Shown here: piece by piece, positions 39,210 to 57,390 of the stretch
Position numbering within the stretch: the stretch's first letter is position 1
Layout of the letters: each line of letters begins with the position of its first letter
Source: Maricaulis salignorans
GTDB taxonomy: Bacteria; Pseudomonadota; Alphaproteobacteria; Sphingomonadales; Sphingomonadaceae
DNA: 64,000 nt
Assembly: GCA_943368745.1 (NCBI GenBank)
Contig: CALRLP020000004.1
Span: forward strand, 17,617-81,616
Reading direction: 5' to 3'
Position numbers and translations under genes: made by a program
Notes under the pieces: generated by a model
What the model saw: only the letters and a program-made list of their open reading frames with translations
What the model was told of the DNA's origin: nothing
Databases searched by the model: none

Positions 39210-39234
39210 AACCGGAGAGCAAGGCGAATGTTCC
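39210..39234 (-). promoter_or_regulatory. EcfG-type promoter motif for the CHRD-TopIB operon
   Basis: GGAAC-N17-GTT about 50 nt upstream of ATG 39159. Confidence 0.65.
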
Positions 39235-40800: not shown

Positions 40801-41002
40801 ATGTCTCTAAACGGAGCATTGCCGCCAATCTGTCGGTTGTCGAGGACACGCGGGGGTCAGTATCGCCAAGTCTTCTCCAGAGGCGGGCCTATGTCTCAAT
40901 CCGCCAGCGAAGATATTGCATAATTCGTCAATAAGACTAGATGGCCTCGGATTATGGCCGGTGAGACTGGCGGCAATTTGATCATGATTAGGGTGTAATC
41001 TA

Positions 41003-42037
41003 ATGGATTTTTCAGATCTGGTGCATCGCCGCCAAAACCCCCTGACGGGCCGTTGGGTCTTGGTATCGCCCCACCGAACACAACGTCCCTGGCTTGGCCA
41101 GATAGAACCACAGGCAGCGCCAGACCTACAGGTGCATGATGCGGATTGCTATCTCTGCCCTGGCAACAAACGGGCGAATGGTGCAACCAATCCGAATTAT
41201 GAAGGTCCATGGGCATTCCAAAATGATTTTCCGGCGTTGCTCCTCGGAAGCAACGCTGACATCGAGGCTCAAGACTTGTTTCGTGCCGAAGTCGTCAGCG
41301 GAGAATGCCGCGTAATTTGCTTCTCTCCCAATCATTCGCTGACTTTACCGAAGCTTTCAAAGGAGCAGGTCCGCTGCGTGATTGATTGCTGGGCAGCGCA
41401 ATCAAGTGAGCTGGGCACTCAATACACCTGGGTCCAGCTATTCGAGAACAAAGGGGCCGCGATGGGCTGTTCCAATCCGCACCCCCATGGCCAGCTATGG
41501 GCTAGCAGCCACGTTCCTGATGAGCCTGCAATTGAGGACGAGCGACAGCGCGCCTACTTTGCCGAAACCGGACATAGCTTGCTGACGGAGGTGGCCGCTC
41601 AGGAAGCGGGCGGGCCGCGTGTGGTGATCGAAACGCCAGACTGGCTTGTGATCGTACCGTGGTGGGCGGTGTGGCCATTCGAAACCCTATTGATGCCGCG
41701 GTTCTCGGTGCAGCGCATAGAGCATCTGAACGCTGCCCAGCGCGACGGACTAGCCGATGTCCTGCGCGAGCTAACGGCCCGGTATGACAATCTGTTTGGT
41801 TGTCCATTTCCCTATTCGATGGGCTGGCACGGCGCCCCTTATCTCCCAGGAGATCACAGTCACTGGGTTCTGCATGCCCATTTCTATCCGCCCTTGCTGC
41901 GATCGGCGGCAGTCCGCAAATTCATGGTTGGCTATGAAATGCTCGCCGAAGCGCAACGCGACCTGACGCCTGAACAGGCAGCAGAACGACTTCGCCTTGT
42001 ATCACCAACACATTACAGCCTGAGGGATGCCCAATGA
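41003..42037 (+). CDS. galT: Galactose-1-phosphate uridylyltransferase
   Basis: HRRQNPLTGRWVLVSPHR, CYLCPGN, NDFPAL, FENKGAAMGCSNPHPHGQ, HAHFYPPLLRSA. Confidence 0.96.
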   Translation: MDFSDLVHRRQNPLTGRWVLVSPHRTQRPWLGQIEPQAAPDLQVHDADCYLCPGNKRANGATNPNYEGPWAFQNDFPALLLGSNADIEAQDLFRAEVVSGECRVICFSPNHSLTLPKLSKEQVRCVIDCWAAQSSELGTQYTWVQLFENKGAAMGCSNPHPHGQLWASSHVPDEPAIEDERQRAYFAETGHSLLTEVAAQEAGGPRVVIETPDWLVIVPWWAVWPFETLLMPRFSVQRIEHLNAAQRDGLADVLRELTARYDNLFGCPFPYSMGWHGAPYLPGDHSHWVLHAHFYPPLLRSAAVRKFMVGYEMLAEAQRDLTPEQAAERLRLVSPTHYSLRDAQ

Positions 42038-43203
42038 CCCCCCTCGAAGCACTGACTCAACATACTATACAGACATTTCGACAAGCTTATGACCGCGAGC
42101 CAACAGTCGTTGCATTCGCGCCGGGTCGGGTTAATCTAATCGGAGATCATACGGATTATAACGATGGCTTCGCGCTGCCCTGTGCACTGGAGTACGGCAC
42201 CGTAGTCGCCTTAGCGCCGCGGGTTGATGACCTGATTGCTGCTCACGCAGTCGACCTGCAGGAAGAGAACTGTGAGTTCGCGATTGATGCCCCAATTGTT
42301 CCAATGTCGGCGGGACACTGGCAAAACCATTTGCGTGGCGCAACCGCAGGATTGCTGAAGTTCGGACTACCAGTTGGGGGCGCGTACCTCGCTATTTCCG
42401 GAAATGTTCCTCAAGGAACAGGCCTTTCTTCTTCCGCGTCACTTGGTGTCGCATTGGGCTTGGGGCTCACTGCATTAGCTGGCGAGCAAACACCAGACCG
42501 CCGCGCTTTGGCCAAGGTAGCACAATGGGCCGAGCATCATTTCGTTGGATGCGCTTGTGGCTTGATGGACCAAATCGCTTCCGCATTTGGGCAGCAGGAC
42601 AGCGCTTTGCTCCTCGATTGCCGTTCGCTTGCGGTCGAGCCAGTGCACTTCCCCGCAGATGCACGCATCCTGATTGTGCAATCCGGCGTCGTGCGCGAAC
42701 TGGCTGAGAGTGCGTACAACGAGCGACGGACCCAATGCGCCAGCGCGGCAGCCCATTTTGGCGTTTCAGCGCTGCGCGATCTCGATCCGCAGCGACTGGA
42801 AGCAAAGCGCTCTGATCTCGACGACAAAGTCTACCGTCGCGCGCGCCATGTTGTGACGGAAAATGTGCGAACCGTAGATGCTGCGCGCGCAATCGCGCAG
42901 GGTGACTTGGTTGCTCTTGGTAATGCAATGCGCGCCTCGCATCTCTCACTCAAGAACGACTTCGAGGTTAGTGTGCCAGCGGTCGATGCGCTCGTCGATT
43001 GTCTAAACTTGGCGATAGGTAACGAAGGCGGTGCGAGGATGACGGGTGGTGGCTTCGGCGGATGCGTCGTTGCGGTTCTTCCATTCAACAAGATGGACGC
43101 GGTTAAGCGCGCACTAGGCGCATTCTGGCATGCAAAAGGCATGCGTCCTCAGTTGGGCATCGTAGCTAGGCCGTCTGCCGGCGCCTGTCTGCTGCCTATC
43201 TAA
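42034..43203 (+). CDS. galK: Galactokinase
   Basis: APGRVNLIGDHTDYN, PQGTGLSSSAS, CGLMDQ, GARMTGGGFGGC. Confidence 0.95.
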   Translation: MTPLEALTQHTIQTFRQAYDREPTVVAFAPGRVNLIGDHTDYNDGFALPCALEYGTVVALAPRVDDLIAAHAVDLQEENCEFAIDAPIVPMSAGHWQNHLRGATAGLLKFGLPVGGAYLAISGNVPQGTGLSSSASLGVALGLGLTALAGEQTPDRRALAKVAQWAEHHFVGCACGLMDQIASAFGQQDSALLLDCRSLAVEPVHFPADARILIVQSGVVRELAESAYNERRTQCASAAAHFGVSALRDLDPQRLEAKRSDLDDKVYRRARHVVTENVRTVDAARAIAQGDLVALGNAMRASHLSLKNDFEVSVPAVDALVDCLNLAIGNEGGARMTGGGFGGCVVAVLPFNKMDAVKRALGAFWHAKGMRPQLGIVARPSAGACLLPI

Positions 43204-43429
43204 TGCAGCCGCCCAAACTCCAAATGAGCAAAGTGTTTGGATCCTATCGGAACGACAAGGGTCGGTTCGCCGCTTCATTAGCTGCGCAAGTGCCATCGCG
43301 GGCCGCTCAACTCCATTTCTGAGGTAATCGTCAGACTGGCATTGTTATTGATAATATAATTAATAATGTCGTGTTTTGGCACGATTGAGTGACGATTTTT
43401 CGCGGAAAAATGCCGCTACATCTTCACTA

Positions 43430-43466
43430 TTGACTAATCATCCATTTGTATTGCACATATAGTCAA
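43430..43466. promoter_or_regulatory. Candidate operator upstream of the TonB-dependent receptor
   Basis: TTGACTA-N23-TAGTCAA inverted repeat in an AT-rich promoter region. Confidence 0.3.
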
Positions 43467-43484
43467 CAGCAAAGGGAGGAAAAC

Positions 43485-45833
43485 ATGTCAAAAATCAAGT
43501 TTCAGTTAGTGGGCGCATCTGCTGTGGCTATCGCGTCGGTTGCCTTCGCAGCACCGGCTTTCGCGCAGGCCGAAAACAATGATTCCGCCAACGATCGCGA
43601 TACGATTGTTGTCACGGCGCAAAAGAAAGCGGAAAATGTCCAGGATGTCCCGATCGCAATAACTGCACTAAATGCGGCAGCACTCGAAGCGGCGCGCGTA
43701 GAGGACAGCAAAGATCTTCAGTTCAACGCACCCAATGTGACGCTGTCAGCTAACCGCAACATCACTATTCGCGGCGTCGGCTCCGCGTCATACGGCGGAA
43801 CGGGAGACACCAACATCGGCGTTCTGGTAAACGGCGTGTTCCTGCAGTCGGGTAGCAGTTTCGGCGAATTCTTTGACATGGAGCGTATCGAGGTTTTGCG
43901 CGGACCGCAGGGTACCTTGTTCGGTCGGAACACAACTGGCGGCGCCATCAACTTTGTAACGCGCCGACCGACTGACCGCTTTGAAGGGTATCTAGAGGTA
44001 CAGGGTGAAAACCCGCGTGGCATAAGAACTAATGCGGCGATTAACATCCCCTTGGCTAATGGCCTATCTCAGCGCTTCGCAGCTAATTACATCAACCGGG
44101 ATGGCTATACAAAAAACCTACTCGATGGTTCGATGGTTGATGGCCGCAACCAGTTCACCTTGCGTTCTAGTACGCGCCTTCAGCCTTCGAGCTCCACAAC
44201 GGTCGACCTTACGCTAACATATTTTAAGGAAGATTCAGATCGCCAGAACGCTGCTAAGTCGCTCTGCACACCTGATTCAGCCTTTGGCTGCTCGCCAAAT
44301 TCAGTTTCAGCAGCGTTTCCGACGACCAACTTCACAATCGACAGTATCTTTCTCGGAGGGCGAGTTCGGCCTAACACTTTTTCGGCAAACCCGACCAGCC
44401 TTCGCGAAGTTGTGATCGACGTTAAGCCGTTCCAGAAGGCAGAGGACTTCCTAGCGACCCTGGAGATTAATCAAGAGTTAGGAGGCCTTACGCTCACGGC
44501 GGTGACCGGTCTGCGTGACGGCAACAACTCAAGCGAGCGTGATTTCGATCAGGGGTATCGGCCGAATGCCTTTAACCCCGGCACGTTCGGGACCCACGTG
44601 ATCCCTGATGCCGGTAATGGCAACGGCGTGATGACCTACTTGTTGTCAGGTCGTCCGGTAACTACGACTGAATATCGCACGTCGCAGACTGGCGGCGGCA
44701 CGCAAAAGCAGTTTAGCCAAGAGCTGCGCCTTGCTTCACGTTTGGATGGGAGCTTTAATTTTATCTTGGGTGGCTTTTATCTGAACTCGCGAGGCTCCGG
44801 TTACGTCGATACCTGGACCCCAGCAAACCGATTGTCCGGCGCTGTATCAAAGTTCAGCACGCGTTTAGGGCAGGTTGAATCTTATGCCGTTTTCGGTGAA
44901 GCCTATGTCGATCTTGCAGAGAACCTCAAGCTTACCGGTGGACTGCGCTACACTCATGATAAAAAGCATATCGAAACCGCTTCTGGCCTTTTCGCATTAA
45001 GCCCCTATTTCATCGGCGACGCGAACTTTGACAAGTTAACAGGGCGCGCGGTTATAAACTGGAAGCCAACGGTTTCATTTACGCAAGATACCAACATATA
45101 TCTGTCTTTCTCGCGTGGGTTTAAATCGGGTGGGTTCAACCCGGGCAACAACACTATTCCGGTTTTCGAATCAGAAGTGATCGATGCCTATGAACTTGGC
45201 GCAAAGAATACGTTCATGGATGGCAAGGGCCGATTGAACTTGGCCTTGTTCAATTACGAATACTCCAACCTGATCGTCGGCAACCTTGTCGGAACCGCTG
45301 TGGCGAACACCAACATTCCCAAGTCGCGAGTGAGAGGTTTAGAAGCGGAGTTGGTCTATACTCCGATCGAGCCGCTGCGCCTTGAGGCCAATCTTGGTCT
45401 ACTGAACGCAACCGTCCGCAGCGATTTTCGTTCGTCTGACCCGTCTCGTGGCAAGGCACTGTTCCAGCTCCAAGGTAATCAGCTTCCGAATGCGCCGCGC
45501 CGTACGCTGAAGTTGGCTGCGGAATACACGGTTGAGGCAGGGGAGGACTGGGCCGTTCGCCCGCGCATCGATTTCTATTCGCAGTCCGGCTTTCACTCGC
45601 GCGAATTCAACGTACCGGCAGACCGCGTTGGCAGTTGGAGCCAACTCGATGCTTCGGTCCAGATTGCTAACAGCAAGAAGGATTGGAGCGTAACTGCTTT
45701 TGTCAAGAATCTGGCGAATAAGGACAGCATCACTTGGCTGGAAGTGAACTCCGAATTGGTAGGCAGTTTCCGTAGTGCTTTCCTATTGGATCCGCGGACC
45801 TTCGGTATAAGCCTTCGCGTCGGCTTCCAGTAA
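43485..45833 (+). CDS. TonB-dependent outer-membrane receptor
   Basis: Signal peptide; TonB box DTIVVTAQK; RIEVLRGPQGTLFGRNTTGGAIN plug motif; C-terminal PRTFGISLRVGF. Confidence 0.95.
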   Translation: MSKIKFQLVGASAVAIASVAFAAPAFAQAENNDSANDRDTIVVTAQKKAENVQDVPIAITALNAAALEAARVEDSKDLQFNAPNVTLSANRNITIRGVGSASYGGTGDTNIGVLVNGVFLQSGSSFGEFFDMERIEVLRGPQGTLFGRNTTGGAINFVTRRPTDRFEGYLEVQGENPRGIRTNAAINIPLANGLSQRFAANYINRDGYTKNLLDGSMVDGRNQFTLRSSTRLQPSSSTTVDLTLTYFKEDSDRQNAAKSLCTPDSAFGCSPNSVSAAFPTTNFTIDSIFLGGRVRPNTFSANPTSLREVVIDVKPFQKAEDFLATLEINQELGGLTLTAVTGLRDGNNSSERDFDQGYRPNAFNPGTFGTHVIPDAGNGNGVMTYLLSGRPVTTTEYRTSQTGGGTQKQFSQELRLASRLDGSFNFILGGFYLNSRGSGYVDTWTPANRLSGAVSKFSTRLGQVESYAVFGEAYVDLAENLKLTGGLRYTHDKKHIETASGLFALSPYFIGDANFDKLTGRAVINWKPTVSFTQDTNIYLSFSRGFKSGGFNPGNNTIPVFESEVIDAYELGAKNTFMDGKGRLNLALFNYEYSNLIVGNLVGTAVANTNIPKSRVRGLEAELVYTPIEPLRLEANLGLLNATVRSDFRSSDPSRGKALFQLQGNQLPNAPRRTLKLAAEYTVEAGEDWAVRPRIDFYSQSGFHSREFNVPADRVGSWSQLDASVQIANSKKDWSVTAFVKNLANKDSITWLEVNSELVGSFRSAFLLDPRTFGISLRVGFQ

Positions 45834-45851
45834 GTAGACCGAATCGATCGA

Positions 45852-45899
45852 CTGGCGCCCCTCCCGCCAGGGCAGGCGAAGGTAACCCCTTCGCCTGCC
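45852..45899 (+). other. Tandem hairpins after the receptor gene (CCCCUCC-loop hairpin plus a perfect 12-bp stem)
   Basis: CTGGCG-CCCCTCC-CGCCAG then GGCAGGCGAAGG-TAACC-CCTTCGCCTGCC; no U-tract. Confidence 0.65.
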
Positions 45900-45933
45900 T
45901 CTTCGACGAAGCAGTAACGGGACCATCTCAATC

Positions 45934-47217
45934 ATGCCGCGACTGATTATAGCCCTTGCAACCTTAATAGCCGCAATTTCTTGCCGTCCGGCGCAAGGGC
46001 AAGTCCAACCGATAGAGCCAGCAGCAGGCCACTCGGCCGAAATGCCTGAACTAGCAATGCTTGGTGCTTTTGGCATCGGCACGCGGATGGATCATCTTGC
46101 GTCGGGTGATCGCACCATAGGTGTCCGCTTCTGGTATCCTGCGGTTCGTAGTAGCTCTTCTACCCCAGTGGTTTACAATCATCGTCGTGCATTGCCTGGC
46201 CAAAAGCCACTCCAAATTACAGAAACCGGCCTCGCGTTAGCTGACGCCAAGCCGATCGCTGGGCAGACCTTTCCATTGGTTATCATGTCTCACGGCTATG
46301 GCGGCTGGTCGGAACATATGAGCCGTCTTGGAGAGACGCTCGCATCAAGGGGCTATGTGGTTGCCTCAATCGATCACCGGGACCAGCCTTTTAATGATAT
46401 TGCTTCATTTGCAGCTTCCTTCGCTGGGGTTCTAATTAACAGGACACTGGACCAACGGGCGGTGCTGAATGCGATCCTCGGTGCAAAACTGGCGCCACAG
46501 ATCGCCGAAAAGATTAATCCGAATGCAATCGGCCTCCTCGGCTTCTCCATGGGCGGTTATGGCAGCTTGACCACAGCCGGCGCGGCACTTGATCCGGCGG
46601 CCCCGGCCTTTGCCCAGTTATCGCCAGCTATGCGTGCGCAACTCCCTATTCCGGATCCCGCCCTGGCATCGAAAATCAAGGCTGTCGTATTACTTGCCCC
46701 TTGGGGTGGACAGCCCGGCGCAGCGGTCTGGCAGGATTCTGCGCTTGCCAGCCTGCGAATGCCGCTGCTCGTTGTGGCGGGCGATCAAGACGATGTTGTT
46801 GATTACGAGCGCGGGGTAAAACGGCTTTTCAATGCGGCGCAAGGCACCGACCGTTACCTTCTCGTTTATCGCGAGGCCGCGCATAACATTGCCGGAAATC
46901 CTGTGACAATCCCATCAGATGCTGACTTTCCAACGATTGAGTTCCTTACCGACCCTGTGTGGCGCAAGGAACGGATTGAAATGATAAACGCGCATTTCAT
47001 CGGAGCATTCCTTGACCTTGAATTGAAGGCCGAAGAAAGTAAAAGTACATATCTCGAAGTACCCACACCATTCGCAAACCAAGGTCAGTGGCCCAGCAGC
47101 TTTGGTCAGACGTGGGGCGGCGTTACAGCAGGCAAGGACCAGCCAGGTTACTGGCGTGGATTTCAGCGTCGTTGGGCGCGTGGGTTGGAACTTCATCACA
47201 AATCGGCAGGTAAATGA
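45934..47217 (+). CDS. Exported alpha/beta hydrolase (PAF-acetylhydrolase/dienelactone hydrolase-like esterase)
   Basis: Signal peptide; SHGYGG, GFSMGG nucleophile elbow, GDQDD, AAHN. Confidence 0.85.
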   Translation: MPRLIIALATLIAAISCRPAQGQVQPIEPAAGHSAEMPELAMLGAFGIGTRMDHLASGDRTIGVRFWYPAVRSSSSTPVVYNHRRALPGQKPLQITETGLALADAKPIAGQTFPLVIMSHGYGGWSEHMSRLGETLASRGYVVASIDHRDQPFNDIASFAASFAGVLINRTLDQRAVLNAILGAKLAPQIAEKINPNAIGLLGFSMGGYGSLTTAGAALDPAAPAFAQLSPAMRAQLPIPDPALASKIKAVVLLAPWGGQPGAAVWQDSALASLRMPLLVVAGDQDDVVDYERGVKRLFNAAQGTDRYLLVYREAAHNIAGNPVTIPSDADFPTIEFLTDPVWRKERIEMINAHFIGAFLDLELKAEESKSTYLEVPTPFANQGQWPSSFGQTWGGVTAGKDQPGYWRGFQRRWARGLELHHKSAGK

Positions 47218-47990
47218 ACAATATGCACAATCTTTTCGATCTTAACGGCCACGTCGCATTGGTAACGGGCGGCAATGGAGGACTTGGCCTTGCTATGGCA
47301 AAAGGCTTAGCCAAGGCAGGTGCGCAAATCGCAGTGTGGGGACGAAACGAAGCCAAGAATGCTGAGGCGGTTGCTGAACTGGTTGCGATGGGTGGCCACG
47401 CCCAAAGCTTCGAAGCTGACGTGACTGACCCGTCGTCTACCGCTGCGGCATTTGATCGCACCATTAATGCTTTCGGAAAAATCGACAGCTGTTTTGCCAA
47501 CGCAGGTGGCGCCGGCGCTAGAGGCTCGTTCGTCGATATGGATCGGCAAGCCTGGCTCGACACGAACGAGCTCAATATCCTTAGCGTGATAGACACGTTT
47601 CAGCTTGCAACGCGTCACTGGCAAAACCGCAAAGCGGGGGGCAAGTTGATTGTCACGTCTTCGGTGGCGGCACTCATTGGACTACCCAATTCCGCTGGCT
47701 ACTGCCTTACCAAATCGGCCGTGACTGGGCTGGTCCGATCACTTGCAATCGAACTGGGACGCAGCGGTATCCAGGTTAACGCAATCCTGCCCGGGTTCAT
47801 CGAGACCGAAATGTCGCTGAATACGCCCAAAGCCTTTCAAGACGGGTGTCGCCGCCGGGCAGCGTCCGGCAAGATTGGACAATTGTCAGACATGGAAGGT
47901 ATCGCAGTTTACCTTGCATCCCAGCAAAGCAATTTCATGACCGGTCAAGCGCTAGTGCTTGACGGCGGCCATTCGATTTTTCCTTTATGA
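47214..47990 (+). CDS. SDR family oxidoreductase
   Basis: TGGNGGLG, FANAG, YCLTK, VNAILPG. Confidence 0.92.
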   Translation: MNNMHNLFDLNGHVALVTGGNGGLGLAMAKGLAKAGAQIAVWGRNEAKNAEAVAELVAMGGHAQSFEADVTDPSSTAAAFDRTINAFGKIDSCFANAGGAGARGSFVDMDRQAWLDTNELNILSVIDTFQLATRHWQNRKAGGKLIVTSSVAALIGLPNSAGYCLTKSAVTGLVRSLAIELGRSGIQVNAILPGFIETEMSLNTPKAFQDGCRRRAASGKIGQLSDMEGIAVYLASQQSNFMTGQALVLDGGHSIFPL

Positions 47991-48082
47991 TGGGACCCGA
48001 TACATCATCGGATTTCAAGGGGAGCGATCGCACAAATCGTTCAAGAAACGGTTTACAAAGTCGAATTTGGAAGGGGGCATAA

Positions 48083-49450
48083 GTGGCATCAGCATCCGGT
48101 CGTGAAGAGCAACAGATAGGCTTGTGGCGAATTCTTGCCTTTGGGTCTGTGCAATTGCCCCTTGGAATGATCGGGCTACCGATCGCAATCTATCTGGCTC
48201 CGCTCTATTCTGGACAGATGCAATTGGCTCTGCAGCTCATCGGGATTTCGTTAATCCTAGCACGCCTATCCGATTTCATTACCGATCCGATTATAGGAAT
48301 TGTTTCCGATCGCTGGCGCCCCAAAATCGGTCGCAGACGGGTGTGGCTGATTTTTGGATCATTGACGATGATGGCAGGGGTCTACCTGCTATTCCGGCCC
48401 TCGCCGGGTATTGATATCGTCTATTTCCTTGCAGCTGTCGCGCTCGTTTATCTGGGCTACACGATGCTATTGCTACCCTATCATGCCTGGGCAGCCGAGC
48501 TTTCCGAAGACTATCACGTTCGAACCCGAATAAGTTCGGTTTCACAGGCCTTCAGCATCGCCGGCCTGATCACATCGACACTCATCCCTGCCTATGTACA
48601 AATGCAGCCTGGAACGACCAGCGCAGATGTGATGTCGGCGTTAAGCGTCGTTATCATAGCTTTGCTGCCGCTATGTGCGGCGCTTGCCTTCTTTTTCGTT
48701 CCAGAGCCCGAAGCTCCAATCCGCAAAGCCCCGTTCAACATAACCAAGGCGATGAAAATGCTTGGCTCCAACCGGGCTTTCTTGCAGGTAACTTTGTTGG
48801 TGCTTGTTGCAACGGTGGGCGAAGTTTTCCGTCAGACGATCACCGTGTTTTTTGCGCGCGATGTTGTGGGCGTCCCTAATATCGGCGTCATATACTTCCT
48901 CTATTTCGTCGCCGCGCTGCTTGTTGTGCCCGGTTGGGTTTGGCTCGCCAAGCGGATCGAAAAACACCGCGCCCTTGCCTTGGCGCTCGTTATCGTCGCG
49001 GCAACCAATGCGTTGATGTTCTTTGTGCAAAAGGGCGGGGTATATGTCTTTACCGCCCTCTTTATCCTGAAAGGTGCGTGCTATGGTGCAGTGCTCATGC
49101 TGCCGCACGCGATGATAGCTGATACTGCAGATATCGACACCGCAGACACGTTGGATCGCCAACAGGGGCTGTTTTATGCAGTGACGGCTATGGTTCAGAA
49201 GATGGGATATGCTGCTGGCTCCGGTCTGCCTTTGCTCATTCTTGGCGGCATTGGCTATGTTTCTGCCGGTGAAAGCAGAGCCGAACCGCTGCTAGCCTTG
49301 ACGATCAGCTACAGTGTTATTCCAGCGGTTCTGGTGCTGATTGCCGCTTATATGGCGTGGCATTATACTTTGACAGAGGCGCGCCATCGCGACATCCGCG
49401 CCGAAATCGACGCTCGAATGGCCGTCGCTTCTTCCGGAGTGAAAGAATAA
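48083..49450 (+). CDS. MFS_2/GPH family (MelB-like) transporter
   Basis: About 12 TM helices; DFITDPIIGIVSDR...GRRR, WAAELSEDYHVRTRI, ADTAD motifs; GTG start. Confidence 0.88.
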   Translation: MASASGREEQQIGLWRILAFGSVQLPLGMIGLPIAIYLAPLYSGQMQLALQLIGISLILARLSDFITDPIIGIVSDRWRPKIGRRRVWLIFGSLTMMAGVYLLFRPSPGIDIVYFLAAVALVYLGYTMLLLPYHAWAAELSEDYHVRTRISSVSQAFSIAGLITSTLIPAYVQMQPGTTSADVMSALSVVIIALLPLCAALAFFFVPEPEAPIRKAPFNITKAMKMLGSNRAFLQVTLLVLVATVGEVFRQTITVFFARDVVGVPNIGVIYFLYFVAALLVVPGWVWLAKRIEKHRALALALVIVAATNALMFFVQKGGVYVFTALFILKGACYGAVLMLPHAMIADTADIDTADTLDRQQGLFYAVTAMVQKMGYAAGSGLPLLILGGIGYVSAGESRAEPLLALTISYSVIPAVLVLIAAYMAWHYTLTEARHRDIRAEIDARMAVASSGVKE

Positions 49451-50430
49451 TGATCACAGGGCTGCATCATGTCGGACTTTCTGTGCTCAATCTCGACGCG
49501 GCGATCGACTTCTATACCAATCAGCATGCCTATAATCTCTCCCACCGATTTGACGTAGAAGATAACACAAAAAATCGTGCCATGCTGCAGCTTGATAATG
49601 CCTCTGCTCGGGGCGCGTTTTTGCAGGGCAGTCTCGGATGTTTGGAACTGTTCGAATATGCCTGTAAACCTGAAATGGATCAGGAAGATAAGGCAGTCTA
49701 TTCAGCAGGAATACGCCATATCTGCCTACAGAGCGAGATTTCCGACCGGTTGTACGATGGACTGGTTGCCGCCGGTGCGACTTCACATGCACGACCCTCG
49801 GGGTTGGGAACAGGCAACAGTTATGTCTATATCCGTGATCCCGAAGGCAATCTTCTGGAGCTTGAGGGAACACCTTGGGCGCCGGAGGAGGCTCGCCGCC
49901 CTTGGTTTGCGCACGTTGCGCTGGTCACTCCAGATATCAGCAGGCTGACTGATTTTTATGCGCTGCTCACCGGAATCGATATCCATCGCCAAGGCAGTTT
50001 CGGCCCCAGTCCTAAATTCGATCATGTGGCTGGACTTTCAGACGTATGTTTCACGGGCGCTTGGTCGCGGCTCGCCAACGCCGAACTAGAATTTTGGTGC
50101 TATGCACATCCATCTACTCTGCCAGGAAACAGGCGCAGTCTGGCGACTCCGGGGTGGAACCATATTTGCTTTGAAAGCGACGATATCGACGCTGACTATG
50201 CACGGTTAGTGGCCCATGGCATCGAATTGCACGGGCCGCCCCATATGTTCGGAAATGCGCGGCTATTTTTCGGACGCGACCCCGACGGCAATGTTTTCGA
50301 AGTACTGCAACCCAGCTTAGATAAACAGCTAACCGTCGCTGCAATGTTGCAAGAAGCCAATGGCCATAGCGTCGATGCTGCGCGTACCGCATATCGCAAT
50401 CGATTGGCCGCGACGGCTACAGAGGCATAA
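49450..50430 (+). CDS. Two-domain VOC/glyoxalase family protein
   Basis: HHVGLSV..LELFEY..RHICL..DPEGNLLEL repeated as HVALV..LEFW..NHICF..DPDGNVFEV. Confidence 0.88.
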   Translation: MITGLHHVGLSVLNLDAAIDFYTNQHAYNLSHRFDVEDNTKNRAMLQLDNASARGAFLQGSLGCLELFEYACKPEMDQEDKAVYSAGIRHICLQSEISDRLYDGLVAAGATSHARPSGLGTGNSYVYIRDPEGNLLELEGTPWAPEEARRPWFAHVALVTPDISRLTDFYALLTGIDIHRQGSFGPSPKFDHVAGLSDVCFTGAWSRLANAELEFWCYAHPSTLPGNRRSLATPGWNHICFESDDIDADYARLVAHGIELHGPPHMFGNARLFFGRDPDGNVFEVLQPSLDKQLTVAAMLQEANGHSVDAARTAYRNRLAATATEA

Positions 50431-50435
50431 CCTCG

Positions 50436-51377
50436 ATGTCCTTCACCTTGGGTCCTGCTATTGCCAACGCTTCCCCTACGAACCGAAATGTTCGGGCCAA
50501 TGGACTGGATTTTCATTGCTTGGAACAGGGGCGCGGCGAACCAATTCTCTTTTTGCACGGCTTTCCCGACCACGCGGCCACATGGCGCCCTCTTGCAGAA
50601 CGCCTCGCGCCGGAATTCAGGCTTATTGCGCCGGATCTGCGTGGCTATGGTTTGACGTCGCGTCCGCTGGATGTTGAAAGCTACCGGCTGGGGCATTTGA
50701 TCGACGACGTCGCGGCATTGATTGATGCGTTTGATTTGTCGATGGTGCATTTATGTGGACATGATTGGGGTGGCGTTTTGGCGTTCGCATTTGCGGAAAA
50801 GCATCCGCATAAAGCAGCCAGCCTTACCGTCCTCAACGCGCCGCCGCCTGCAGTATTGCAAAAAATGATCTGGAATGACCCCAACCAGCGCCTTGCATCC
50901 CAATACATCACCATGCTGCGTTCCGCCGAGGCAGATGCACTGTTCAATGAAACCAATGTCGATGCTTTAATAGAGCGTTTCTTGGCGCAACCTTATCGTC
51001 ATGGATTGCTGAATGATGCTGACATCGAGGCCTATCGTCATGCCTGGACCCAAAAGGGTGTGTGGCAGGCGATGTTGGCTTGGTATCGTGCATCTCCCTT
51101 TGATGTGCCGGATATCGATGCAGAATTTGGCAACGACTTTCTGGATGAATGCCACATCGAGTGCCCCGTCCAGATCATCTGGGGTGATCAGGATGCCGTT
51201 TTTGTGCCCGCCATGGCGGACGCCATCGTCCATGCCTGCGCGGAGGCTATCCTCACGCGACTGCCCGCTGCTGGACATGTCCCGCACCGCGATGCCCCTG
51301 AACGCTGCGCAGCGTTGATTGCTAAATTTATCGCTCAACACCCAATCCGGCCGATTTCAAAGGAAGTTACAGCATGA
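50436..51377 (+). CDS. Epoxide hydrolase-like alpha/beta hydrolase
   Basis: LHGFPD, PDLRGYG, GHDWGG Asp nucleophile, lid Tyr in SQYI and WYRA, WGDQD, GHVPH. Confidence 0.82.
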   Translation: MSFTLGPAIANASPTNRNVRANGLDFHCLEQGRGEPILFLHGFPDHAATWRPLAERLAPEFRLIAPDLRGYGLTSRPLDVESYRLGHLIDDVAALIDAFDLSMVHLCGHDWGGVLAFAFAEKHPHKAASLTVLNAPPPAVLQKMIWNDPNQRLASQYITMLRSAEADALFNETNVDALIERFLAQPYRHGLLNDADIEAYRHAWTQKGVWQAMLAWYRASPFDVPDIDAEFGNDFLDECHIECPVQIIWGDQDAVFVPAMADAIVHACAEAILTRLPAAGHVPHRDAPERCAALIAKFIAQHPIRPISKEVTA

Positions 51378-52138
51378 CCGAACAAACTCTTAAAGGCCGC
51401 GTTGCCATCATCACCGGGGCTGCCCGTGGGATTGGGCTTGCGGCCGTGCATCGCCTTTGCGCGAGCGGTGCCAGCGTAGTGGCGTTCGATCGGCCGGAGG
51501 CCGATTTCAGCACCGCCTTGTCTGCTGGTCGCGTTGCCAGTCTAGCCGGTGATGTAGTGAATGCAGCCGATTGGCAGAGGGCGATCGATCTTGCTCTTAC
51601 GCTGGGTGAGCGAGTTGATATCTTGTTCAACAACGCAGGGATATCGGGTGCGATAGCCAATGCGCTAGACTATCCGGAAGAAGAATTTGACCGGATTATG
51701 GCGGTCAACGTTAAAGGTGTCTTTCTGGGGCTAAAGTATGTCGGCCATCACATGCTGACCAATCGCAGCGGTGTGATGGTCAACACATCCTCGGTTTCGA
51801 GCTTTGGCGGTAGCGGTAACATCTTTGGGTACACTGCCAGCAAGCATGCGGTGAATGGAATGACCAAGTCCGCGGCCATCGCGCTGGCGCCGCACGGGGT
51901 GCGTGTGCTGGCAATCTGCCCTAGTCCGACGGCAACCGAAATGATGTTCCAACTCGAGCGCCGCCTTTCGCCCGATAACCCAGAGGCTGCTCGGCCACAA
52001 TTGGCACAGGGTATCCCCATGGCACGCTATGGCACACCAGAGGAAGTGGCCGAAGCCTTGGCGTTTCTGGTCAGCGATGCAGCCGCTTTCATGACTGGTG
52101 CCCTTGTGCCGGTCGATGGCGGAACCTTGGCCAAGTAA
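51374..52138 (+). CDS. SDR family oxidoreductase
   Basis: TGAARGIG, FNNAG, YTASKHAV. Confidence 0.92.
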   Translation: MTEQTLKGRVAIITGAARGIGLAAVHRLCASGASVVAFDRPEADFSTALSAGRVASLAGDVVNAADWQRAIDLALTLGERVDILFNNAGISGAIANALDYPEEEFDRIMAVNVKGVFLGLKYVGHHMLTNRSGVMVNTSSVSSFGGSGNIFGYTASKHAVNGMTKSAAIALAPHGVRVLAICPSPTATEMMFQLERRLSPDNPEAARPQLAQGIPMARYGTPEEVAEALAFLVSDAAAFMTGALVPVDGGTLAK

Positions 52139-52156
52139 CCCGAAGAGGAGGCTGAC

Positions 52157-52915
52157 ATGGTGACGCAGATCGAACGTAGCTTCGGGGAAAAATTCCTCAA
52201 AAGCATCGACAATTTCTACACCTACGGGATCGACTGGTTGTTCAACGAATGGTGGGAAACAGCTCCGGCTGATGTGATTGCGAAGTACGAAGCGGCGATC
52301 CTCGATCACCCGGACCATGGACCGCTGGCTAGGGAAGGATGGCTTGCGCCGGATTTTCGAATTGGTTCGCTCGACAGCTATGGTCCAGGTACGTTGGGCC
52401 ATGCTTACCGCGCCTTCATGGTCGACAACAATCTGGTTGAACATTTGGCAGCTGGTTACCACGCTAGGCATGATGAATTGCTGCAAAGCGGTAAAATTGA
52501 TCGCATGCCTCCGGCATTAGCTTACAAGGTGTTACGTGGCTTTCAGACACATGATCTTCATCATGTCCTGACCGGCTATCCGGCTACACCACTCGGTGAG
52601 CTTGCAATTCAGGCATTCCAACTTGCCCAGATGGACTATCCTTATGCTGCCATGTGGATTGCCGTTGTGACCAGTCATATGACTTTGGTTGATCCCTACC
52701 TAATCAAGCCGGGGATGGACGCGATCACGGATGGTTGGGCTCTTGGCCGGCGCGCCCGCAGCGTCCAGTTCGTGAAGTTTGAGCATCGTCTCGGTGAACC
52801 TTTGGATGACATTCGCGCCGAATTTGGGTTGCAGCGCAATCTCGTTGCGATCGCGGATACGCCGCCCAAACGCACGCCCGAACTTCTAAAGCCGTCAGTT
52901 GAGCGCTCAGATTGA
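52157..52915 (+). CDS. Coq4-family protein
   Basis: PGTLGHAY, THDLHHVLTGY, GELAIQAF (HDxxH...E motif); RBS GAGGAGG. Confidence 0.82.
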   Translation: MVTQIERSFGEKFLKSIDNFYTYGIDWLFNEWWETAPADVIAKYEAAILDHPDHGPLAREGWLAPDFRIGSLDSYGPGTLGHAYRAFMVDNNLVEHLAAGYHARHDELLQSGKIDRMPPALAYKVLRGFQTHDLHHVLTGYPATPLGELAIQAFQLAQMDYPYAAMWIAVVTSHMTLVDPYLIKPGMDAITDGWALGRRARSVQFVKFEHRLGEPLDDIRAEFGLQRNLVAIADTPPKRTPELLKPSVERSD

Positions 52916-53572
52916 TGCCGGTTGTTGACGCCGGATCGGCTGGTGCCGATTTGTATGCTCACGCTTGATCTCAGTCAGCGTCCCTAGGATCATGGTGACA
53001 GTTAAGTCTTCAAGCGCTTCTCGACTGAGTTTGCGTTGCAACAAATAGGCACCCGCAGCGGCCGGCAAACCAAAGCTAATGTCTGTTGCTGCTCTGGCGA
53101 TATCGGGAGGTAAATTGAAATGTTCGGCAACAATTTCGGCCAGATAGCTAACGGCGGTGTCGCGACCGAACTCTGTGGGGTCGTGAATAGCAGAGACTGA
53201 GGGTTCGGCTTGCAACCGTTCGATCAACATACCCCGCTCATCAATATATTTGAGGTAAACATGTGTAACAGAACGAACCAAATCCTCGAAAGTATTAGCT
53301 TTTTGAGCGGCTTCGACCTGTTGTCGCCGCAAGCGCCTCCATTCGCGTTGCAGAAGAAGCCTCAGCAGATCAGTTATATTGGGGAAATAATTGTAGACCA
53401 GAGACTTGCTTATACCCGCTTCACGCCCGATGCGATCCATCGACAAGGCCGAAACACCGTCGCGCGCAACAATCTCAGCAACATGATCAAGGATGAACGT
53501 CTGTCGCTCGCTTGGGGCGAGGCGGACCCGTTTCTGGGACTTCGACAGAGCACTTCGTTTGGCATCAGGCAT
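52907..53572 (-). CDS. TetR/AcrR family regulator
   Basis: N-terminal HTH SMDRIGREAGISKSLVYNYF. Confidence 0.9.
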   Translation of the reverse strand: MPDAKRSALSKSQKRVRLAPSERQTFILDHVAEIVARDGVSALSMDRIGREAGISKSLVYNYFPNITDLLRLLLQREWRRLRRQQVEAAQKANTFEDLVRSVTHVYLKYIDERGMLIERLQAEPSVSAIHDPTEFGRDTAVSYLAEIVAEHFNLPPDIARAATDISFGLPAAAGAYLLQRKLSREALEDLTVTMILGTLTEIKREHTNRHQPIRRQQPASI

Positions 53573-53726
53573 CGCGTTGCAACCTTTAACAATTTTCACA
53601 CCCAGCAAACCCGATCGCGAGAACCTTTATCGTTATTTGCCTGTTCCGGCTGGTTTGCCCGTCACAAGCAGAAAGGGCAAGGTTAGATAGATGTCAATTT
53701 CCTCGCAATGGTTGAATAGGCCGATT

Positions 53727-55658
53727 ATGAAATTAGGCACCTGCTATTATCCCGAACATTGGCCGGAAAACCTCTGGGCCGAGGACGCTCTCCGTATGGT
53801 CGAGACCGGCCTTTCGCAAGTGCGCATCGGGGAGTTTGCATGGAGCAGGATCGAACCCGATCCGGGTCAATTCGACTGGGGATGGCTCGATCGTGCGATT
53901 GAAACGCTCCATGCTGCTGGGCTAGAGGTCATTCTGGGCACTCCGACCGCAACGCCGCCAAAGTGGCTGGTAGATGCGATGCCTGACATGGTAGCAACCA
54001 ACGAACATGGACACGCTCGCATATTTGGATCACGGCGGCACTATTGCTTCAGCCATCGTGGTTATCGCGCTGAAGCAGCACGGATCACTCGGGCGGTAGC
54101 TAACCGCTATGGCAAGCATCCGGCTGTAGTAGCTTGGCAGACTGACAACGAATATGGTTGCCACGATACGGTGCTAAGCTTTTCCGACGCCGCGCGGCTG
54201 GCTTTCCGCGAATGGCTGGCGGCCCGCTATGGCACAGCGATGAATCTCAATCGCGCGTGGGGTAATGTCTTCTGGTCAATGGAGTACAGAAGCTTCGATG
54301 AGATCGATTTGCCCGGTCACACGGTGACTGAGGCAAATCCAGCGCACTGGCTGGCCTTCCGTCGCTTCGCCTCGGACGAGGTGGCCGCCTTCAACCGCAG
54401 CCAGGTTGAGATACTTCGCGAACTCTCGCCAGGCCGCGATGTTGTCCACAACTACATGGGCTTCTTCACCGAGTTCGATCATCACGCGATCGCGGCCGAC
54501 TTGGACGTGGTCGGCTGGGATTCCTACCCGCTTGGTTTCCTAGACAGCTTTCCATTCACCGAAGCCGACAAACTGGCATATGCCCGCCAGGGCCACCCGG
54601 ATATAGCTGCTTTCCACCATGATCTCTACCGCGGTTGTAAGCCGAGCGGCCGCTGGTCGGTGCTGGAACAGCAGCCTGGCCCCGTTAACTGGGCGAACCA
54701 TAATCCTGCCCCGCTGCCTGGCATGGTTCGGCTATGGACGTTGGAGGCTATGGCACATGGAGCTGAATTGGTCAGCTATTTCCGCTGGCGTCAGTTCCCG
54801 CAAGCGCAGGAGCAACATCACGCAGGGCTTTTGCTGCCCGATAGTGAACCAGCCCTTGGTCTTGCCGAAGCCGCACAGTCAGCCCGTGATATCGCGATGC
54901 TCGGGCCAGTCGGCGATCCGCCCAAGCAAGTTGCACTCGTTTTTGCTTATGATGCGGACTGGGTCACCAAAATCCAACCACAAGGTAAAGGCGTCTCTGC
55001 GCTGTGGGCCACCTTTTCTTGCTATTCGGCACTGCGAAAACTGGGCCTCGATATCGACATCGTGCCTCCGGGCAGGCCTCTCGATGGCTACGCTCTGGTA
55101 GTCTTGCCTTGCCTGCCGATTGTGCCTGATTGCCTAGTTGCTGAACTACAGCGGTTTTCTGGTCAAATTGTAATCGGACCGCGAAGCGGCAGCCGCGATG
55201 CCGACTTTGCCATTTCCGATGGCCTGCCGCCCGGCCCCCTGAGAGCGCTTTTCCCCGGTAAGGTCGTAAGGGTGGAAAGCCTGCGCCCAGGCCTGACACA
55301 TCCCGGCAAGGATTGGGAGATTGAGCGATGGCTGGAACACCTTGAAACTGCCGCCGAACCTGAAATGATTGCTTTGGACGGCACAGTTGCATGCTGGCGC
55401 CATAGGCAAGTGCGCTATATGTCGGCCTGGCCCAACCAAGAAGTTGCACACGCCGTTCTAGCGCGCGCAGCCAAAGATGCCGGCCTTGCCACGCACGCTT
55501 TGCCTGAAGGACTCAGGCTACGTCGGGCTGGAAATAAGACTTTTATCTTCAACTATAGTAAAGAAACGGTTCACTTGCCGGACACCGTAACTGGGGATTT
55601 ACTGCTAGGCCAAAGAACCCTTCCCCCGGCCGATGTATCGATACTCAAAGCCAACTAA
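53727..55658 (+). CDS. GH42 beta-galactosidase, cytoplasmic
   Basis: GTCYYPEHW, VRIGEFAWSRIEP, LGTPTATPPKW, WQTDNEYGCH, VLEQQPG; no signal peptide. Confidence 0.93.
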   Translation: MKLGTCYYPEHWPENLWAEDALRMVETGLSQVRIGEFAWSRIEPDPGQFDWGWLDRAIETLHAAGLEVILGTPTATPPKWLVDAMPDMVATNEHGHARIFGSRRHYCFSHRGYRAEAARITRAVANRYGKHPAVVAWQTDNEYGCHDTVLSFSDAARLAFREWLAARYGTAMNLNRAWGNVFWSMEYRSFDEIDLPGHTVTEANPAHWLAFRRFASDEVAAFNRSQVEILRELSPGRDVVHNYMGFFTEFDHHAIAADLDVVGWDSYPLGFLDSFPFTEADKLAYARQGHPDIAAFHHDLYRGCKPSGRWSVLEQQPGPVNWANHNPAPLPGMVRLWTLEAMAHGAELVSYFRWRQFPQAQEQHHAGLLLPDSEPALGLAEAAQSARDIAMLGPVGDPPKQVALVFAYDADWVTKIQPQGKGVSALWATFSCYSALRKLGLDIDIVPPGRPLDGYALVVLPCLPIVPDCLVAELQRFSGQIVIGPRSGSRDADFAISDGLPPGPLRALFPGKVVRVESLRPGLTHPGKDWEIERWLEHLETAAEPEMIALDGTVACWRHRQVRYMSAWPNQEVAHAVLARAAKDAGLATHALPEGLRLRRAGNKTFIFNYSKETVHLPDTVTGDLLLGQRTLPPADVSILKAN

Positions 55659-56734: not shown

Positions 56735-56964
56735 CGCCGGAGCAGTAGGATTTATCAGCGGTTAATGACAGGCATTGTATACACCCAACCCTCACAGTCC
56801 CGAGCATCCACTTTTAATGCAAACTCGACTGGACTGTGCTCTATATACGAGCAACAGCACATTGCGCTTCGGCACTGATCGAAGCGGCTTGCCCTGCCGG
56901 CTCTAACCGGGGGGCTCTGGGTGGTGGCAGCAGGCATTGGGCCTGCTGCGATCGGAGACCACCT

Positions 56965-57390
56965 ATGTTAAAATCGTCAAGCCGCAAGAAGGAGGCCACC
57001 GCTGTCGTCGCCCAGCTTATTGATATGTCGTTAGCGGAGCTTCGTGCAGAATGGCAACGCCGATACGGCCCGCCGCCTAAGCATCGAGCATCAGATTTGT
57101 TGCGGCGCGTTCTGGCTTGGCGCATCCAAGCCGATGCTTTCGGCGATCTCGATGCTGCGACGCGGCGGATACTCTCTAAGGAGCAAAATGTGCTGCGCCC
57201 TTCTGCCCAGCCAGGGATGCGATTGGCGCGTGAATGGGCAGGCCTTCGCTACGAGGTGGTCGTGATCGAAAACGGCGTGGTCTTTGAGGGGCAGACCTTT
57301 GGAAGCCTTTCAGAGGTTGCGCGGCATATCACAGGCCGCCGATGGAACGGACCGCGCTTCTTTGGCCTGCGGGGTGTCAACGTACGATGA
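56965..57390 (+). CDS. DUF2924 family protein
   Basis: LAWRIQADAFGDL, PGMRLAREWAG..YEV, SLSEVARHITGRRWNGPRFFGL. Confidence 0.92.
   Translation: MLKSSSRKKEATAVVAQLIDMSLAELRAEWQRRYGPPPKHRASDLLRRVLAWRIQADAFGDLDAATRRILSKEQNVLRPSAQPGMRLAREWAGLRYEVVVIENGVVFEGQTFGSLSEVARHITGRRWNGPRFFGLRGVNVR

Follow-up and report, generated by a model that had tools for sequence, protein, structure and literature searches.

The 64,000-nucleotide stretch of contig CALRLP020000004.1 analysed here (the window) contains, between positions 41003 and 55658, an island of twelve genes in which galT, galK and a GH42 beta-galactosidase gene enclose a block coding for a TonB-dependent receptor, an exported serine esterase, two short-chain dehydrogenases (SDR1 and SDR2), a GPH/MFS_2 symporter, a tandem VOC protein, an epoxide hydrolase-type alpha/beta hydrolase, a Coq4-like protein and a TetR-family repressor. 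We propose, with moderate confidence, that positions 40914-55658 constitute a single repressor-controlled regulon for scavenging an ester-bearing galactoside, probably derived from algal or cyanobacterial biomass. The phototrophic origin is suggested by the habitats of the carriers, which are bacteria of freshwater lakes, rivers and blooms and associates of algae. From the protein families, motifs, synteny, cis-element and localisation signals observed, we infer the following order of steps, together with the nature of the aglycone and the pairing of TetR with its operator. The receptor would move the compound across the outer membrane, the esterase would strip one or more acyl groups from it in the periplasm, and the symporter would import the still-glycosylated product into the cytoplasm, where GH42 (in relatives GH36, or both enzymes) would free galactose. 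The sugar would enter the Leloir route through GalK and GalT, or the De Ley-Doudoroff route in two other lineages. The non-sugar part may bear an epoxide or vicinal-oxygen functions: the epoxide hydrolase would open the epoxide to a diol, the two SDRs would oxidise the diol to a ketol or diketone, the glyoxalase-I-like VOC protein would isomerise or cleave it at a metal-stabilised enediolate, and the Coq4-like metalloprotein would complete the processing. TetR is predicted to bind TATTG(AC)-N6-(GT)CAATA at the galT and receptor promoters and to be released by the substrate or its lipophilic part.

This proposition is supported by the recurrent linkage of the galactose genes and the inner block. 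With the tandem VOC gene as anchor, a family alignment was built and 57 loci were collected, each with flanks of up to 10 kb, from species-representative genomes; three further loci were fetched by exact-protein look-ups, giving 60 other loci (designated by L numbers), and all window proteins were run by tblastn against the VOC-anchored loci. The Steroidobacteraceae bins, of high GC content and with spurious six-frame open reading frames (ORFs), were read by tblastn alone. The nine-gene block, in the order receptor, esterase, SDR1, transporter, VOC, hydrolase, SDR2, Coq4, TetR, is conserved in about 20 loci at 55-99% amino acid identity, mostly in Sphingomonadales. A small number of bins of Steroidobacteraceae, 'Hydrogenophaga' and Gemmatimonadaceae have it at about 65-80% identity, which points to horizontal transfer or mis-binning. 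Its most conserved core consists of the epoxide hydrolase, both SDRs, the VOC protein and the Coq4-like protein. Of the 57 anchored loci, 20 have galactose genes within 10 kb of the VOC gene, as do all three extra ones; for a random position in a 3-4 Mb genome we would expect, by a rough estimate, some 1%. The galactose genes that recur around the VOC homologues are GH42, GH36, galK, galT, galM and a gene for a sodium-solute symporter (SSF), and their arrangement takes at least six forms, spread over Sphingomonadales, Hyphomonadaceae and further bins of Alphaproteobacteria.

The order found in the window, [GH36 or SSF]-galT-galK-[galM]-block-TetR/GH42-[galM], recurs in L003, L006, L010, L014, L019, L036 and L059. 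At L021, lactonase, dehydratase, GH36 and GH42 genes are divergent from SSF-transporter-VOC-hydrolase-SDR2, and in Hyphomonas (L024, L027) GH42, GH36, galT, galK and galM lie beside a rearranged block, with GalT and GalK only 31-39% identical to those of the window and hence of a different lineage. A GH36 alpha-galactosidase occupies the slot of GH42, divergent from TetR, at the locus of a Sandaracinobacteroides saxicola protein (L061); in L041, GH42 is followed by an SMP-30 lactonase, 2-keto-3-deoxy-6-phosphogalactonate (KDPGal) aldolase, 2-keto-3-deoxygalactonokinase and an SDR; and distant 'type-2' clusters (L043, L046, L058) hold galK, galT, SSF, GH36 and GH42 beside esterase, Coq4, TetR, SDR, receptor and VOC homologues and a second MFS_2 gene. 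The galactosidase therefore varies between GH42, GH36 or both, the two being found together in L021, L027, L046, L058 and L059, and the genes of the De Ley-Doudoroff route (lactonase, dehydratase, 2-keto-3-deoxygalactonate kinase and KDPGal aldolase) adjoin GH42 in place of GalK/GalT in L021 and L041. Such exchanges of both the galactosidase and the galactose pathway are difficult to account for if the island does not yield galactose. In Sphingomonadales, the tie of GH42 to the block is closer than that of galTK: the gene comes after TetR in every locus whose sequence extends that far, except L012, and persists as a remnant in L007 and as a gene truncated by a recombinase element in L004. An earlier note on this DNA had proposed that the galactose genes and the inner block are functionally linked and had named their co-occurrence in other genomes as a check; the recurrent linkage, the interchangeable galactosidases and galactose routes and a common operator support this proposal, and with it an arrangement that is not due to chance.

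The common operator was recognised by phylogenetic footprinting, which delineated two conserved segments upstream of the receptor gene, both reducing to TATTG-N10-CAATA, with TATTGAC-N6-GTCAATA as the full form. At up to one mismatch the shorter pattern occurs three times in the window, against 1.18 expected, and all occurrences lie in the galT and receptor promoters. The four highest window scores of a position weight matrix (PWM) derived from 43 sites, 40 of them outside the window, also fall in these promoters (25.4, 25.3, 19.8 and 14.9); 20 shuffles peaked at 5.8-15.6. Across 59 loci (890 kb), 98 operator matches were counted against 10-12 in composition-preserving block shuffles, an enrichment of about ninefold that is specific to the spacing, since the same half-sites at other spacings give 11-27 matches. 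Thirteen loci conserve the proximal of the two segments, whose arms co-vary in L014 and L019, and almost every type-1 locus, the Steroidobacteraceae bins included, retains a site some 100 bp ahead of the receptor gene. The element further stands upstream of galT in L003, L004, L006 and L019 (its position being equivalent to that in the window in L003, L004, L006 and L059/L060), upstream of SSF-galT-galK in L010 and L036, and at the GH36/galT and TetR/GH42 divergent promoters in L059 and L014. In the Hyphomonas cluster it stands before every operon, among them a divergent one for an acyl-CoA synthetase and dehydrogenase; in Aquidulcibacter it precedes the transporter or VOC gene, and in type-2 clusters the SDR1, TetR, receptor and esterase genes. 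Since a TetR homologue accompanies the palindrome in all loci long enough to show it, the TetR of the cluster is the candidate binder, and the galT and receptor operons probably form one regulon. Solved relatives of TetR gave no clue to its ligand. The 25-nt proximal receptor operator has no second copy in the window at up to three mismatches, and a generic repeat finder returned no element common to the island promoters, the TATTG-N10-CAATA pattern having emerged only after footprinting. A different perfect palindrome, CTATTGGTGAACCGACCAATAG, lies at 386-409 of L003, the closest relative, upstream of a gene for an HxlR-type regulator; its ends fit TATTG-N10-CAATA, and it did not turn up, at up to one mismatch, in the corresponding part of the window.

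The gene families and co-orientation given in the earlier note were recovered for every gene of the island by Pfam and NCBIfam profile matches, with TetR as the sole gene on the minus strand (Table 1), and an independent gene call on the identical public contig (L001) agrees with this gene set. GalT and GalK are full length and exceed the curated equivalog cut-offs for the Leloir enzymes. The GH42 protein has all three of its domains (catalytic TIM barrel, trimerisation and C-terminal) and is without a signal peptide. The receptor, for which no NCBIfam receptor family reaches its cut-off, is likely to start at the ATG at 43485, which is preceded by a GGGAGG ribosome-binding site, and the VOC protein at the ATG at 49450, given that a longer 357-aa ORF from 49357 would overlap the transporter gene. 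From the receptor to Coq4 the spacing is operon-like, with overlaps of 4 bp or 1 bp or gaps of at most 100 bp. All genes are covered, if thinly, by contigs from four metatranscriptomes of freshwater, estuary and wetland origin. The SDR1-transporter, transporter-VOC, hydrolase-SDR2 and SDR2-Coq4 junctions are bridged as well, which is weakly consistent with one transcript from receptor to Coq4, as these contigs are strandless and may include DNA; a scan for consensus promoters and terminators gave background levels and did not resolve operon boundaries. In line with the earlier note, neither a LacI-type regulator nor an exported glycoside hydrolase was found between 36 and 64 kb of the window.

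Table 1. Features of the island and its promoters (positions in the window).
Feature	Position	Strand	Evidence and remarks
Operator-like palindrome TATTGCATAATTCGTCAATA	40914-40933		Perfect TATTG-N10-CAATA match; 70 bp upstream of the galT ATG; PWM score 25.3
galT, galactose-1-phosphate uridylyltransferase	41003-42037	+	NCBIfam equivalog NF008724, 533 bits (cut-off 448); PF01087, PF02744
galK, galactokinase	42034-43203	+	TIGR00131, 345.5 bits (cut-off 226.65); PF10509, PF00288, PF08544; 4-bp overlap with galT
Distal operator-like palindrome before the receptor operon	43346-43365		One mismatch; PWM score 25.4
Proximal promoter/operator segment TATTGAC..CCATTTGTATTGCACATATAGTCAACA	43428-43468		Third TATTG-N10-CAATA match at 43449-43468; about 20 bp before the ribosome-binding site
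TonB-dependent outer-membrane receptor	43485-45833 (ORF from 43446)	+	Plug and barrel Pfam domains; gene call in L001
Exported serine esterase	45934-47217	+	427 aa; Pfam PAF-AH_p_II, PETase, Hydrolase_4; signal-like N-terminus; GFSMGG
SDR1, classical short-chain dehydrogenase	47214-47990	+	adh_short_C2, E 1e-55; TGGNGGLG and S..YxxxK
GPH/MFS_2 cation symporter	48083-49450	+	PF13347, 251 bits; stop overlaps VOC start
Tandem (four-module) VOC protein	49450-50430	+	326 aa; Pfam Glyoxalase twice
Cytoplasmic epoxide hydrolase-type alpha/beta hydrolase	50436-51377	+	313 aa; HGFP, GHDWGG, AGHVPH
SDR2, classical SDR	51374-52138	+	adh_short_C2, E 8e-54; NF005559, 217 bits (cut-off 215)
Coq4-like metalloprotein	52157-52915	+	PF05019, 54 bits (cut-off 22.9); HDLHH-x11-E
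TetR-family repressor	52907-53608 (likely start 53572)	-	PF00440; 221 aa in L001; convergent with Coq4, divergent from GH42
Cytoplasmic GH42 beta-galactosidase	53691-55658 (alternative start 53727)	+	PF02449, E 5e-141; PF08532, 2e-25; PF08533, 8e-5

In the AlphaFold2 model of the esterase (pLDDT confidence 86; residues 1-32 disordered), the core resembles cutinase and PETase, and additional elements can be aligned with Lp-PLA2/PAF-acetylhydrolase. Foldseek matched it to PETase (TM-score 0.7 on the target) and to Lp-PLA2 (0.54 on the query), and some homologues match Pfam Chlorophyllase. The beta-lactamase family includes class VIII esterases, and it is a protein of this family, exported and unrelated to the esterase, that sits in the esterase's slot in Hyphomonas, immediately upstream of the transporter gene. 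The presence of an unrelated exported hydrolase at this place supports periplasmic de-esterification before import. The earlier note had proposed a course of uptake, deacylation, import, cleavage and work on the aglycone, and this order fits both the localisation signals and the exchange in Hyphomonas. The transporter scores 176 bits against TIGR00792, below the cut-off of 231, and its best solved relative is the lysolipid symporter MFSD2A (4.7e-14), slightly ahead of MelB (1.6e-12). Its stop codon overlaps the VOC start codon, a sign of the translational coupling of the two genes in type-1 loci. On these similarities, it is conceivable that the cargo is a soluble glycoside or an amphipathic lyso-glycolipid, and amphipathic glycolipids, instead of plain sugars, may be what this bacterial subfamily transports.

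The inner enzymes read as a sequence from epoxide to diol, to ketol or diketone, and to isomerisation or cleavage of a lipophilic moiety, an order that we deduce from the families present. The alpha/beta hydrolase had been labelled epoxide hydrolase-like, and this label holds: the protein has an HGFP oxyanion motif, an Asp nucleophile in GHDWGG, and a catalytic-type His in AGHVPH, and it aligns end to end with the Bacillus megaterium epoxide hydrolase (4O08/4INZ, E 3e-48). Its sequence has several lid tyrosines (Y157, Y187, Y200 and Y217), and against the haloalkane dehalogenase model NF002938 it scores 129 bits, below the cut-off of 241. Both SDRs are classical, and a reading as halohydrin dehalogenases was rejected on account of their intact NAD(P) glycine motif and S-Y-K triad; SDR2 just passes the cut-off of the 'glucose 1-dehydrogenase' subfamily NF005559. 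VOC and SDR2 probably act in sequence, since their genes are adjacent throughout, even in Roseiflexaceae, where the neighbours of the pair, judged by eye from the sequences, are housekeeping-like (NAD synthesis, DnaK/DnaJ). The model of the VOC protein (pLDDT 94) is a four-module tandem whose Foldseek matches are headed by the two-domain glyoxalase I of maize (TM-score 0.62-0.71; sequence identity 16-18%), followed by GLOD4, Bacillus Mhq-type proteins and the hydroquinone dioxygenase PcpA (0.60). Each half has a His/Glu/His/Glu set as in glyoxalase I and methylmalonyl-CoA epimerase (H7/E66/H90/E139 and H155/E214/H238/E284), conserved in the close subfamily; in the distant type-2 homologues E66 is lost and a His/His/Glu triad remains. 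None of the NCBIfam dioxygenase models comes near its cut-off (HpaD, 19 bits), and PcpA, absent from the best 60 of 74 sequence matches in the PDB, resembles the protein at the level of the fold. These features of the model favour enediolate chemistry, as of an isomerase, epimerase or lyase, rather than ring cleavage. A meta-cleavage trio like BphC/BphD/BphB, made up of the VOC protein, the hydrolase and an SDR, was rejected because the hydrolase is nearest to epoxide hydrolases and its nucleophile is Asp, not Ser, and because the VOC protein matches no dioxygenase family. The Coq4-like label is likewise confirmed, by the match to PF05019 and by the metal motif HDLHH-VLTGYPATPLG-E (HDxxH-x11-E); the solved relatives are the cyanobacterial 3MSQ (2e-10) and Alr8543 (6E12). 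No ubi or coq genes occur near the island, and the gene sits with those of the receptor, transporter and TetR.

The type-2 loci (L037-L046, L052-L058) are remotely related sister clusters found in Sphingomonadales, Sphingorhabdus sp. EL138 among them, and their VOC protein is about 36% identical to that of the window. They share the esterase, the Coq4-like protein, two TetR paralogues, SDRs, the receptor, the VOC protein, a 500-aa MFS_2 protein and the operator, and add a PhyH-family dioxygenase, an AKR12D-like aldo-keto reductase (AKR), an amidohydrolase_2 protein and an alkenal-reductase-type alcohol dehydrogenase (ADH); some also hold a glutathione S-transferase (GST)-like gene and a second, exported epoxide hydrolase-like protein. 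The AKR matches the AKR12D tylosin reductase 8JWK with E 4e-110 and also has AKRs acting on deoxynivalenol among its closest relatives, and the PhyH protein has weak PDB matches only. In Hyphomonas (L024/L025, 16750-20500), genes for an acyl-CoA synthetase, an acyl-CoA dehydrogenase and an unassigned 276-313-aa protein are divergent from the receptor gene behind two operators, and in Aquidulcibacter (L029-L035) a thiolase gene follows the VOC, hydrolase and SDR genes. These acyl-CoA genes and the thiolase hint at a carboxylic acid as an intermediate of the pathway.

Compared with known systems, the island is most aptly classed among the TonB-receptor sugar-utilisation loci, with a conserved and unusual set for aglycone processing. 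Like the carbohydrate-utilisation (CUT) loci of Xanthomonas, Caulobacter and sphingomonads, an arrangement typical of aquatic and plant-associated proteobacteria, it unites a TonB receptor, an MFS/GPH inner-membrane carrier, a cytoplasmic glycoside hydrolase and a repressor in one locus (PMC1790865), and its receptor and galT promoters have an operator in common. It differs from them in lacking an exported glycoside hydrolase, in having TetR instead of a LacI- or GntR-type regulator, and in adding five conserved non-carbohydrate enzymes and an exported esterase. A GPH-type symporter, a cytoplasmic galactosidase and GalK/GalT are also common to the mel/lac-type systems (MelB-MelA, LacY-LacZ and the Leloir enzymes); beta-galactosylglycerol from plant lipids has long been suggested as a natural lac substrate. 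Unlike those systems, the island has a carrier that is distant from MelB and as close to MFSD2A, and adds an outer-membrane receptor, an esterase and aglycone enzymes. The breakdown of sulfoquinovosyldiacylglycerol follows the same logic of extracellular or periplasmic deacylation, head-group import, cytoplasmic cleavage and sugar catabolism (PMC13436972, PMC10507154); the sugar of the island is galactose, however, and it has neither a sulfoquinovosidase (GH31/GH188) nor enzymes for sulfo-sugars. A sulfoquinovose dioxygenase route through the type-2 PhyH and AKR proteins is unsupported, as SqoD belongs to a different Pfam family (PF02668) and the AKR is nearest to AKR12D and the deoxynivalenol AKRs.

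The enzymatic core also has parallels in lipophilic catabolism. The Lin pathway of sphingomonads employs LinB, an Asp-nucleophile alpha/beta hydrolase, the SDRs LinC and LinX, and LinE, a two-domain VOC dioxygenase of which PcpA is a relative. The island has this trio of folds in the same bacterial order; in contrast to Lin, its hydrolase is nearest to epoxide hydrolases, its VOC protein keeps four-ligand glyoxalase-type sites, and no homologues of LinA, LinD or LinF were seen. Deoxynivalenol is a terpenoid with an epoxide and a ketol. Its isomerisation by the specialised glyoxalase I (SPG), an enzyme derived from glyoxalase I (PMC12362738), offers a precedent, by analogy only, for action of such an enzyme on the ketol of a lipophilic epoxide compound. 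The fold of eukaryotic COQ4 binds metals through HDxxH-x11-E beside a hydrophobic tunnel and carries out the oxidative decarboxylation (at C1) of a prenylated aromatic acid (PMC10680789). Here too the likeness is an analogy only; the gene of the island lies in a bacterial catabolic operon. Bacteria of this kind make ubiquinone by the Ubi route. No description of the cluster was found in the searchable literature.

The substrate has to be considered against three other explanations. Galactolipids had been named as a plausible substrate in the earlier note, and thylakoid galactolipids are the most abundant membrane lipids on Earth. A pathway for mono- and digalactosyldiacylglycerol (MGDG and DGDG), especially their oxidised, oxylipin-bearing forms from dying phytoplankton, would be a more specific form of the proposed regulon and is possible, if rather improbable. 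The esterase would then be a galactolipase, the transporter would import galactosylglycerol or a lyso-galactolipid, GH36 and GH42 would remove alpha- and beta-galactose, and the core would handle epoxy-, hydroxy- and ketol-type acyl chains. The DGDG head group is alpha-Gal-(1-6)-beta-Gal, which suits the co-occurrence of GH36 and GH42, and the esterase resembles cutinases and Lp-PLA2/PAF-acetylhydrolase, Lp-PLA2 being an enzyme that prefers oxidised acyl chains. The kinship of the transporter with MFSD2A, the freshwater and algal habitats of the carriers, the alkenal-reductase-type ADH, AKR, GST-like and PhyH genes of the type-2 relatives, the acyl-CoA synthetase and dehydrogenase behind the same operator in Hyphomonas and the thiolase of Aquidulcibacter point in the same direction, as does the statement of a 2026 review that the enzymes with which aquatic bacteria deacylate thylakoid glycolipids are still unidentified (PMC13436972). 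However, simple MGDG or DGDG would leave glycerol as aglycone and thus no role for the epoxide hydrolase, the SDRs, the VOC protein or the Coq4-like protein; a GPH carrier would not deliver to the cytoplasmic enzymes any acyl chains cut off in the periplasm; the cluster of the window is without glycerol, FadL/FadD and beta-oxidation genes; the Coq4-like protein is unaccounted for; and the putative galactolipase role derives from the fold class of a model. Literature searches found no described bacterial locus or pathway for the degradation of galactolipids or DGDG. Plain MGDG or DGDG agrees with the esterase, the galactosidases, the habitat and perhaps the transporter, and fails to employ the core enzymes. 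A better match to the chemistry, though a speculative one, would be oxidised galactolipids or a galactoside that is an acylated terpenoid or lipophilic in some other way. That we are looking at the first recognisable bacterial system for eating thylakoid galactolipids, particularly oxidised ones, is an idea advanced with considerable doubt; its parts may be a galactolipase in the periplasm, an importer resembling MFSD2A for lyso-galactolipid or galactosylglycerol, alpha- and beta-galactosidases, a cytoplasmic oxylipin-disarming core and a lipid-sensing TetR, spread horizontally among freshwater bloom bacteria.

Two unrelated functions could also adjoin each other, an ordinary galactose locus (SSF, galTK, galM, GH42, GH36) having repeatedly received a mobile module for a non-glycosylated lipophilic epoxide or ketone. 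Mobile elements lend this view some colour: a serine recombinase and tRNA-Cys adjoin the block in the window, related recombinases replace GH42 in L004/L005 and precede the receptor gene in L009, the block of L059 has a transposase and a MobA/MobL relaxase at its flank, and a tRNA lies beside TetR in Steroidobacteraceae bins. The block also occurs without galactose genes in several loci and, in the main gene order, splits a galactose locus that is contiguous in L046 and L058. We nonetheless judge it unlikely in view of the operator common to galactose and inner-block promoters in several lineages, the independent linkage with non-homologous parts (GH36 or GH42, Leloir or De Ley-Doudoroff genes, differing types of galT and galK) and the translational coupling of a glycoside-type GPH carrier to the VOC gene in type-1 loci. 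Least probable of all, in our opinion, is the use of acylated or feruloylated galacto-oligosaccharides. The esterase would then be a carbohydrate esterase for esterified galactan fragments of plants or algae, GH42 and GH36 would trim the oligosaccharide, and the inner enzymes would degrade the freed acid or a modified sugar. The best PDB sequence match of the esterase is 5YAE (E 5e-10), annotated just 'Esterase', which we take to be a Streptomyces feruloyl esterase; GH42 enzymes commonly act on galacto-oligosaccharides, and the subfamily match of SDR2 would suit a sugar substrate. Set against this are the lack of an exported endo-galactanase or other glycoside hydrolase and of a LacI- or AraC-type sugar regulator, the presence of an epoxide hydrolase, a Coq4-like protein and a TetR, all atypical for sugar loci, and the fact that no known hydroxycinnamate genes were seen.

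The ester-bearing galactoside regulon that we prefer has several observations weighing against it. The TetR-GH42 spacer of the window holds only a site with three mismatches, so that GH42 has no clear operator, and the probable binding of the palindrome by the cluster TetR has co-occurrence as its sole basis. The galT-galK pair is missing upstream of the block in L007, L008, L009 and L011, and the Steroidobacteraceae bins, L012, L025, L028 and L037-L040 have none of the galactose genes within 10 kb, which indicates that the inner block can exist without such genes nearby. In the predicted structure the VOC protein cannot be placed as isomerase or dioxygenase, the PcpA fold being as close as that of glyoxalase I. 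Many loci come from metagenome bins, and part of the taxonomic spread may be due to mis-binning; the enzyme roles and the galactoside substrate are themselves predictions from sequence.

The block appears to be a transferable module that is seated inside a galactose locus in Sphingomonadales. In the window, the stretch 56836-59273 holds a DUF2924 protein and a large serine recombinase, followed directly by tRNA-Cys (59200-59273, minus strand); recombinases 56-58% identical take the position of GH42 in L004/L005 and a position ahead of the receptor gene in L009, with none in L003, and this unit looks like a small mobile element landing repeatedly beside or inside the island. The transposase and the relaxase of L059 follow GH42. 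In the Steroidobacteraceae bins L013, L016 and L018, the block ends at a tRNA gene, identified by eye, beside TetR (about 14100-14330), with recA further downstream in L013; its proteins are 65-80% identical to the sphingomonad ones, which suggests a transferred genomic island or mis-binned contigs. The window proteins are 97-99% identical to those of freshwater Sphingorhabdus-like Sphingomonadaceae bins.

If the substrate is a phototroph-derived galactoside, the island would mark a defined route by which heterotrophs reach a major, so far unassigned pool of algal and cyanobacterial carbon. Whatever the substrate, it suggests testable functions for bacterial Coq4-like proteins outside ubiquinone synthesis, for tandem glyoxalase-like VOC proteins and for GPH carriers midway between sugar and lysolipid transporters, and the predicted pair of operator and repressor could be used as a biosensor to fish for the inducer. 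The system is also present in natural communities, as carriers or near-identical DNA occur in lake, river, drinking-water and wastewater metagenomes and transcript-derived contigs cover the island.

The flanks are unrelated to the island. Downstream lie DUF3703, the DUF2924/serine-recombinase pair, tRNA-Cys and an efflux protein; upstream are an HxlR regulator, a topoisomerase IB and a PhyR-type stress-response locus. The latter (28543-34429) comprises a PhyR-type response regulator (30900-31682, minus strand), a DUF2383 protein and HWE/HisKA_2 histidine kinases at 28543-29994 (minus) and 32708-34429 (plus). The type IB topoisomerase gene (37692-38726, minus) adjoins that of a CHRD-domain protein (38698-39420, minus), an uncommon pairing.

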